Shown here: piece by piece, positions 62,224 to 64,000 of the stretch | How positions within the stretch are numbered: position 1 is the stretch's first letter | Layout: every line of letters starts with the position of its first letter | Assembly (NCBI GenBank): GCA_964016885.1 | Contig: OZ024743.1 | Coordinates: forward strand, 118,420,001 to 118,484,000 | DNA from: Eledone cirrhosa | Lineage: Eukaryota | Length of the DNA: 64,000 bases | Direction of reading: 5' to 3' | Translations under genes and position numbers: made by a program | Notes under the pieces: generated by a model | The model's input: only the letters and a program-made list of their open reading frames with translations | Databases searched by the model: none | What the model was told of the DNA's origin: nothing

Positions 62224-63129
62224 TATATATATATATATATATATATATATATATATATATATATATATATATATATATATATATATATATATATATATTC
62301 ATGTGTGAGTCGCTTCTATCTTTTATAATTTATTTCATATTAAAAAATGAAATAAATTATAAAAGATACACATATGAATATTTATTTCATTTTTTAATAA
62401 ATATTTTTTCTCTTTGATATTTTTTTTATAAATATTTTTTCTATTTGATATATATTTATCCTTATCGAGCCCTCTTTGGATTTTAGTCTTCACATTTATT
62501 ATTATTATTATATATATATAGAGAGAGAGAGAGAAAGAGAGAGAGAGACAGAGAGAGAGAGGGAGTGAGAGAGAGAGAGAGAGAGAGAGAGAGAGAGAGA
62601 GAGACAGAGAGAGAGAGAGAGAGAGAGAGAGAGAGAGAGAGAGAGAGAGCGAATAAGAAGTCAGATTTGCAAATTGTAATGAAACTTTATTGCATGTTAC
62701 AACTGTTTCGATATTGATTGTCCTCGGGTATCATCAGACGATCGGATCCCGACACTTAATCGATACGTCTTCAGATATGCGAGTTTACATACTTGGGTGG
62801 TCCCATCCAAACACTTTCTCTCTCTCTCTCTCTCTCTCTCTCTCTCTATATATATATATATATATATATATATATATATATATATATATATATATATATA
62901 TATATATATATAATTAAGTTAAAGTGTACATCTACATATGTATACGGAAGTATTAGTATGCATATAAATACACACATGTATACATATGTACATGTACTCA
63001 GCTTTTCACTAGACACTTTACAGTGAGTGTCAGCTAGTCTGTATGTAACCACACAGGCGGACCGGGTTTTAGAGTCATACGAGTTTTCAAGGAAACACAT
63101 TTCCTCTATTCTCCAGCGGGCCAGACAGG

Positions 63130-63174
63130 AATATTGGACTAGTTTCGATGTTATTACATCTCATCAGCAATATT
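63130..63174 (-). ncRNA. Type I minimal hammerhead ribozyme, intact (unit 1)
   Basis: aatattg-CTGATGA-gatgt-aata-acatc-GAAA-ctag-TC-caatatt, with palindromic ACTAGT stem III and a GUC site. Confidence 0.92.
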
Positions 63175-63598
63175 TACCCATCTTCCGGCTTCTCTGGAGA
63201 ATTGTAAAAGCACATATCGTTATATGCTTTTTCTATGAAAATTAGTAGTGGGTAGACTAATTTGCATAGAACGTGAGTCATTGTACGCACCGGTTCAGCG
63301 GAAACGATAAAAACAAATAACGAAACGAAATTAAATTTCGTTTCGCTTCTAACTCACTTTTGTATGACTGACGCTTAAACAATTAAGTTAAAGTGTACAT
63401 CTACATATGTATACGGAAGTATTAGTATGCATATAAATACACACATGTATACATATGTACATGTACTCAGCTTTTCACTAGACACTTTACAGTGAGTGTC
63501 AGCTAGTCTGTATGTAACCACACAGGCGGACCGGGTTTTAGAGTCATACGAGTTTTCAAGGAAACACATTTCCTCTATTCTCCAGAGGGCCAGACAGG

Positions 63599-63643
63599 AA
63601 TATTGGACTAGTTTCGATGTTATTACATCTCATCAGCAATATT
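63599..63643 (-). ncRNA. Type I minimal hammerhead ribozyme, intact (unit 2)
   Basis: Identical to 63130-63174 at +469. Confidence 0.92.
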
Positions 63644-64000
63644 TACCCATCTTCCGGCTTCTCTGGAGAATTGTAAAAGCACATATCGTTATATGCTTTT
63701 TCTATGAAAATTAGTAGTGGGTAGACTAATTTGCATAGAACATGAGTCATTGTACGCACCGGTTCAGCGGAAACGATAAAAACAAATAACGAAACGAAAT
63801 TAAATTTCGTTTCGCTTCTAACTCACTTTTGTATGACTGACGCTTAAACAATTAACTTAATTGTTTAACTTAATTGTTTAAGCGTCAGTCATACAGAAGT
63901 GAGTTAGAAGCGAAACGAAATTTAATTTCGTTTCGTTATTTGTTTTTATCGTTTCCGCTGAACCGGTGCGTACAATGACTCACGTTCTATGCAAATTAGT

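Follow-up and report, generated by a model that had tools for sequence, protein, structure and literature searches.

A young non-coding 469-nt retrozyme family with predicted hammerheads and two-armed insertions in TA repeats of Eledone cirrhosa

Anatomy of the insertion

The window, i.e. the whole stretch of 64,000 nucleotides analysed here (Eledone cirrhosa, assembly GCA_964016885.1, contig OZ024743.1, positions 118,420,001 to 118,484,000 of the forward strand), closes within an insertion composed of two arms that meet head to head and are bordered by TA repeats (Table 1). The left arm consists of two head-to-tail units, for which Tandem Repeats Finder reports a period of 469 nt in 2.0 copies with 99% matches at 62912-63860. 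Two such units separated by few substitutions had been described in a sequence-only reading of the window, and both statements hold: the units differ by exactly two mismatches, 63117 (C/A) and 63273 (G/A), and these are the two named there. Equally correct are the (TA)n adjoining the RNA-sense 3' end and the inverted copy on the 5' side, which proves to be the start of a second arm with a third hammerhead outside the window. Beyond the window this right arm comprises one full unit, the third hammerhead and a tail of 70-74 nt, and ends at site B (window-equivalent 64414-64418) against (TA)n. With three hammerheads over 1.5 kb, the full insertion joins a two-unit minus arm, which stops at site A, to a plus arm that spans one unit and the tail and stops at site B.

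In unit coordinates the predicted hammerhead cut falls after position 244, site A at 469 and site B at position 74 of the next unit, so that A and B are located 225 and 299 nt downstream of the predicted cut and 74 nt apart. The unit is left at 63307 into TA-rich letters in 12 contigs of run X2. Coding capacity of the window unit is confined to a single frame of 104 aa, running from stop to stop into the TA repeat, and an LTR layout is absent.

Other parts of the window contain further features of related kind. At 62650-62816 a short segment flanked by (AG)n and (TC)n(TA)n possesses a minus-strand CTGATGA...GAAAC motif and is probably the remnant of another Penelope-type end. An inverted repeat at 61688-62348, with 125-nt arms at 95%, surrounds TA runs and includes the motif CTGATGAAGA (about 62034). 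Penelope-like coding fragments, all three broken and differing in type, are found at 17214-18844, 56183-57067 and 59430-60600, the first of which matches RVT_1 and GIY-YIG.

Table 1. Positions of the features of the insertion in the window, and loci of the related 487-nt family
Feature	Position	Strand	Remarks
(TA)n microsatellite, left-hand target of insertion	about 62847-62912	.	(TA)33; TA run also beyond the right arm
Left arm, outer 469-nt unit	62912..63380	-	RNA-sense 3' end at 62912 = site A (..TTAACTTAATT)
Left arm, inner 469-nt unit	63381..63849	-	tandem repeat and unit comparison
Type I hammerhead motif 1	63130..63174	-	predicted cut 63137/63136; motif search, folding, covariation
Type I hammerhead motif 2	63599..63643	-	predicted cut 63606/63605; motif search, folding, covariation
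Predicted cut-to-cut RNA monomer, 469 nt	63137..63605	-	strong self-pairing by folding
74-nt tail between start sites A and B	63307..63380	-	contains 13-bp hairpin; 63307 = site B within the unit
Head-to-head arm junction	63850..63875	.	13-nt slippage duplication, TTAA/TTTAA microhomologies
Right arm start	63864..64000	+	extends past the window (locus L011)
487-nt family loci	L132:6480-8015, L143-L160, L022, L136, L140, L142		

Hammerhead motif and predicted RNA monomer

The minus strand of each unit carries a type I hammerhead motif formed by stem I (AAUAUUG/CAAUAUU), the core CUGAUGA, GAAA, a palindromic ACUAGU stem III and the triplet GUC, with a stem II of 5 bp and a 4-nt loop. Both cut positions predicted by the sequence-only reading are recovered from this motif. 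Its description as a perfect minimal type I hammerhead holds as regards the presence of the motif in each unit; the term "minimal", which denotes motifs lacking helix III, does not apply, since according to the accessible text of PMC4209133 motifs with a short palindromic stem III are the canonical metazoan type I, active as dimers and quiet in monomer circles. Stems I and II are recovered by folding. The energy model rejects the two-pair stem III with its 2-nt loop in cis, and pairing of ACUAGU with a second ACUAGU copy is computed at -4.8 kcal/mol. Rfam at gathering scores yields no match for the window motifs. The cut-to-cut monomer is predicted to fold at -159.3 kcal/mol (z -10.2 against 100 shuffles), and at -155 kcal/mol when folded as a circle.

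The 3.0-Gb genome contains 1,463 exact copies of the 31-nt core, against 0 of the reversed control, and the consensus is kept in 355 of 365 hammerhead cores examined. In ten motifs from related families stems I and II covary, with both sides changed in 6 of 16 pairs and 94% of cells paired; none of 500 shuffles scores as high, a control that is inflated by kinship of the sequences. Core counts, intact cores and covarying stems together show that the motif is not due to chance.

Family size, age and relatives

The 469-nt family is young and abundant. Its tail hairpin continuing through site B is present 6,055 times genome-wide, and site B adjoins TATATA at no fewer than 2,193 ends; the genome-wide count of A ends (759) is not comparable with this figure, because the pattern used for A failed to capture the subfamily of the window itself and junctions that are spelled differently. 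The genomic copy count that had been proposed as a check thus stands at 1,463 exact cores and at least 2,193 B ends at TA repeats. Together with the end structure and the autonomous controls described below, it supports what had been suggested from the window, namely a retrozyme-type anatomy, a young family with many copies and mobilisation of the Penelope type.

The 162 insertions fetched for analysis are a small share compared with the 2,193 or more ends, and those from L011-L048 and L187-L200 are top BLAST matches, with a bias to near-consensus copies. Prior to counting, L080 (overlapping L079), L199 (overlapping L017) and insertions at a locus edge (5 and 2) were dropped; matches shorter than 35 nt and columns near gaps or alignment ends were also excluded.

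A sister subfamily of about 466 nt, with 89% identity, is likewise young. A related family of about 487 nt (Table 1) agrees with the 469-nt family in its hammerhead frame, in the hairpin of the tail and in a further hairpin downstream. Its cut triplet is GUA, its tail measures 62 nt, and a (TA)n lies inside the unit. The downstream-hairpin pattern with longer loops is found at 18 loci, nearly all of the 487-nt family. Locus L022 is a chimera of both families, and in a mixed insertion (L244:389-2186) the left arm belongs to the 469-nt family and ends at A, the right arm belongs to the 487-nt family and ends at its B; the two families therefore seem to share a machinery. The long arrays on C1 near 95.62 Mb and at L092, L095 and L188 comprise about 19 to more than 25 units and shade into satellite DNA, some of them with periodic variant patterns.

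Insertion ends and the two-armed layout

Ninety of 99 complete two-armed insertions (58/62 in the first set, 32/37 in the second) possess one A end and one B end. The remaining nine comprise two with A+A, one of which (L234) was fetched as an apparent A+A exception, and seven with one atypical end; B+B does not occur among them. The arms are ordered minus then plus, with 3' ends outward, and inspection by eye of the 63 listed open sides indicates that about 10 conceal a second arm that is very short and belongs to the complementary type. Target duplications of 12-14 nt are found at 5 of 34 insertions, the others being unreadable in TA-rich runs, and the overlaps at arm junctions often amount to 0-5 nt. 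It is the two internal start sites, and not the ribozyme cut, that determine where insertions end, a point missed by the sequence-only reading.

The 487-nt family has an equivalent two-armed layout with the same pairing of A and B ends. Two autonomous Penelope-like families serve as controls and show minus/plus arms with A and B ends in TA repeats in every copy with both ends visible, i.e. 6/6 copies of a family with a 1217-aa ORF (tail 44 nt) and 4/4 copies of a family with a 784-aa RT plus GIY-YIG ORF (tail 39 nt). Penelope-like elements are described in the available part of PMC8557442 as tandem or inverted structures with a tail at a single end, and the accessible text of PMC11167929 reports that a lizard Penelope protein cuts and extends both strands in vitro and that two internal start sites bound the tail. 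The paired A/B ends, the match of the tail and the autonomous controls indicate that a staggered cut provides two 3' ends from which cDNA synthesis is primed, at A for one of them and at B for the other, and insertion is very probably of this two-ended Penelope type. L1-style twin priming, with one polymerase halting at the start of the other, is ruled out, as the 5' ends are spread along the unit.

Two further observations concern single loci. At L079:3948-8710 the two arms enclose a full RTE-type LINE that includes a PHD finger, and the A end of the right arm meets a (CAT)n tail; L079 had been considered as an ORF-bearing copy and was rejected, the ORF being that of the RTE-type LINE. In L017 and L033 single variants are common to two units facing each other across the junction, which suggests conversion or fold-back copying near the junction.

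Search for a partner enzyme

No Penelope-like ORF in register with the unit is found in 116 + 60 = 176 loci. The unit shares no sequence with five autonomous Penelope-like families, selected from many more in the genome and compared through protein searches and copies with long ORFs. The family with the 1217-aa ORF (L207-L214) is very young, with a long Asn-rich insert and a tandem period of 4.1 kb, and its ORF has no Pfam match at E 0.01. A hammerhead-like core lies 251 nt before its site A, compared with 255 nt in the 469-nt unit, a likeness of spacing only. The family with the 784-aa RT plus GIY-YIG ORF (L201-L206) is young, and no hammerhead-like motif was found in its copies. Penelope-like sequence touches the unit without a TA spacer in three loci (784-aa family in L165 and L274, 1217-aa family in L169), and these contacts may be template switches or later insertions. 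L132, a candidate for a unit joined to an ORF, was rejected as a nested insertion, with (TA)n separating the unit from a Neptune-like ORF.

Template of the insertions

Only 3 of 152 5' ends coincide with the predicted cut, with 3.6 expected, i.e. there is no enrichment; of 120 arms, 105 run past one or more predicted cut sites and 48 past two or more. The lack of a pile-up of 5' ends and the read-through of cut sites imply a template that is either circular or uncleaved. A cleaved linear monomer as sole template is ruled out, as arms run past the cut. The two arms of an insertion are discordant in haplotype in 0 of 96 insertions (0/59 in the first set), compared with 69% of arm pairs taken at random. 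L244, one arm of which belongs to the 487-nt family, is an exception that lies outside these 96 insertions; it indicates that the arms need not derive from one RNA, which argues against the circular-template reading.

Private variants were split by the number of units carrying each, in 162 pooled insertions with about 512 unit-equivalents. Among those present in all covering units of an insertion, A>G changes outnumber T>C changes by 10 to 1 (p 0.006), whereas the single-unit variants comprise 18 A>G and 21 T>C out of 215. The insertion-wide A>G changes are presumably the product of adenosine editing. Such an insertion-wide excess, with none at the level of single units, is expected of RNA-level change on one monomer that is copied many times. 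The signal is modest. The first set contains 14 A>G versus 1 T>C, and 7 of those 14 derive from L097; without this locus the insertion-wide ratio is 5 to 1 by strict count (p 0.12) and 16 to 6 by a relaxed count that includes alleles in two insertions (p 0.03). The second set on its own gives 3 to 1 (p 0.37) and 10 to 2 (p 0.02), respectively. No clear neighbour preference is visible at the A>G sites. Insertion-wide C>T versus G>A, noticed post hoc, stands at 3 to 0 or 7 to 0.

In L097:3134-4506 the A>G changes cluster at unit positions 86-210 and are present in all three units, so that this locus looks like the copy of a hyper-edited template; one segment is unlike the other two at four places, which speaks against a circular template. 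A further 38 variants are common to only some of the units, periodically so in L038 and L196, and show that arrays are also built by DNA-level duplication. On balance the template was probably a circular monomer, and the rolling-circle copying proposed in the sequence-only reading receives indirect, moderate support from the haplotype sharing and the A>G pattern.

The strongest alternative, to which we give an appreciable though minor chance, is a two-ended Penelope-type insertion whose template is a linear multimer, produced by transcription of a homogeneous source array and left uncleaved, so that the hammerhead has no role in copying. The read-through of cut sites and the sharing of haplotypes between arms are both accounted for by such a template, and an equivalent layout is achieved by the autonomous 784-aa family, in whose copies no hammerhead-like motif was found. 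As to published work, the available text of Li et al. 2026 (10.64898/2026.07.22.740005) gives 8/9 frog retrozyme dimers without cleavage and 1/9 cleaved, and that of PMC11167929 names uncleaved RNA as the main substrate of a Penelope protein. Independent editing of the units of a multimer predicts, however, an A>G excess among single-unit variants, which is not observed. A linear multimer moreover gives no reason why arrays are uniform internally yet differ in haplotype from each other, nor why the cores remain intact and the stems covary.

A second alternative, which we regard as improbable, holds that insertions begin with about one unit per arm and that arrays arise later through satellite-like DNA duplication and conversion. 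Partly shared variants and periodic patterns in the long arrays L017, L038, L190 and L196 agree with it, and local amplification of repeats born from Penelope termini is favoured in the accessible part of Li et al. 2026. Several multi-unit arrays (L027, L187) are, on the other hand, almost variant-free in both arms and thus too young for much turnover, and the ratio of 215 single-unit to 38 partly shared private variants indicates weak homogenisation, yet the arm haplotypes match.

That the unit merely forms the terminal repeat (pLTR) of some autonomous Penelope-like element, or that the tandem is due to misassembly, both of which the sequence-only reading had raised against itself, is highly improbable: the fetched copies are few relative to the ends counted and three loci show spacer-less contacts, but ORF-less head-to-tail units recur at many loci and in many contigs, with multi-unit arrays at more than 150 fetched insertions, the 176 loci lack an in-register Penelope-like ORF, (TA)n sets L132 apart from the Neptune-like ORF, two mismatches distinguish the window units, and most of the sequence is present in three sequencing runs.

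Proposed mechanism of insertion

The reading that we somewhat favour over all others combined is that of a young non-coding retrozyme with a predicted hammerhead, placed into TA repeats as a two-armed insertion by a Penelope-type RT/GIY-YIG enzyme, probably by copying round one 469-nt circle. A multi-unit array would be transcribed, and hammerheads would cut in pairs via the palindromic stem III; a host ligase would close the monomer, in which a lone hammerhead would hardly recut. A staggered cut of about 12 nt in AT-rich DNA, to which the readable target duplications point in part, would yield two 3' ends. One of them would be extended from A and the other from B, 74 nt downstream, to give the minus arm and the plus arm, in keeping with the geometry seen at the insertions. 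Both polymerases would copy the same RNA across the cut site, for up to many rounds, and the two cDNAs would join at random points, often via overlaps of 1-5 nt such as those present at some junctions. Local DNA duplication, visible in the variant patterns, would later lengthen some arrays. In its most specific form, an asymmetric dimer of Penelope RT and endonuclease would act on one A-to-I-edited, ribozyme-derived circle with two starts 74 nt apart, each insertion being a multi-copy record of that circle; we give this form an even chance.

Comparison with known systems

The copying of circles by a Penelope-type RT has been proposed in print as the return route of animal retrozymes, as a proposal and not as a demonstration in the text available to us. 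The present family offers genomic footprints of such a process, namely fixed paired starts, staggered cuts of about 12 nt, read-through of the cut, one haplotype per insertion and RNA-type changes in every unit. These constitute unusually direct genomic evidence on mechanism and provide the established in vitro assay for Penelope proteins with defined substrates and coordinates. They also bear on the role of hammerheads in Penelope biology, and an enzyme of natural origin able to integrate multi-copy cDNA made from a small circle would be a useful tool.

PMC7229834 (Cervera and de la Pena 2020) describes non-LTR retrozymes together with their circular RNAs and proposes that these circles are copied by Penelope-like enzymes, and 10.64898/2026.07.22.740005 (Li, Clavereau and Pollet 2026) sets out the kinship of retrozymes with Penelope terminal repeats, both as far as their accessible text goes. 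The 469-nt family resembles the metazoan non-LTR retrozymes of these two sources in its tandem units, which are non-coding and each carry a single type I hammerhead with a short palindromic stem III, in low GC, a strongly self-paired monomer, duplications longer than 4 nt and the presence of Penelope-like elements alongside. Its unit of 469 nt lies slightly above the 150-450 nt quoted in the available text, and the two-armed layout, the fixed A/B ends, the tail and the editing marks are not described in the accessible parts of either source. According to the same portions, RNA products and cleavage have been shown for retrozymes of coral, mussel and axolotl, whereas those of the 469-nt family are predicted. 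A literature search, subscription journals and supplements aside, found nothing on a two-armed layout, twin priming or editing marks of retrozymes, or on cephalopod retrozymes.

With Penelope-like elements, as characterised in the available text of PMC8557442 (Craig et al. 2021) and PMC11167929 (Frangieh et al. 2024), the family has in common the tandem and inverted arms, the tail at one end, the two internal starts and the AT-rich or (TA)n targets. It differs from them in a unit without an ORF, in which RT plus GIY-YIG is absent, in a repeat that closes on itself and in a tail of 74 nt versus their 30-40 nt; no sequence match links it to the five autonomous families. The Chlamys elements such as MRC1 (PMC8557442, accessible part) are likewise non-autonomous Penelope derivatives with multicopy head-to-tail insertions. 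As described there, their 3' ends are similar to those of their autonomous partners and hammerheads are missing from most of them, in contrast to the 469-nt family with its conserved hammerhead and with no partner found. The retrozyme class and its link to Penelope are already published, and the 469-nt family is a new member.
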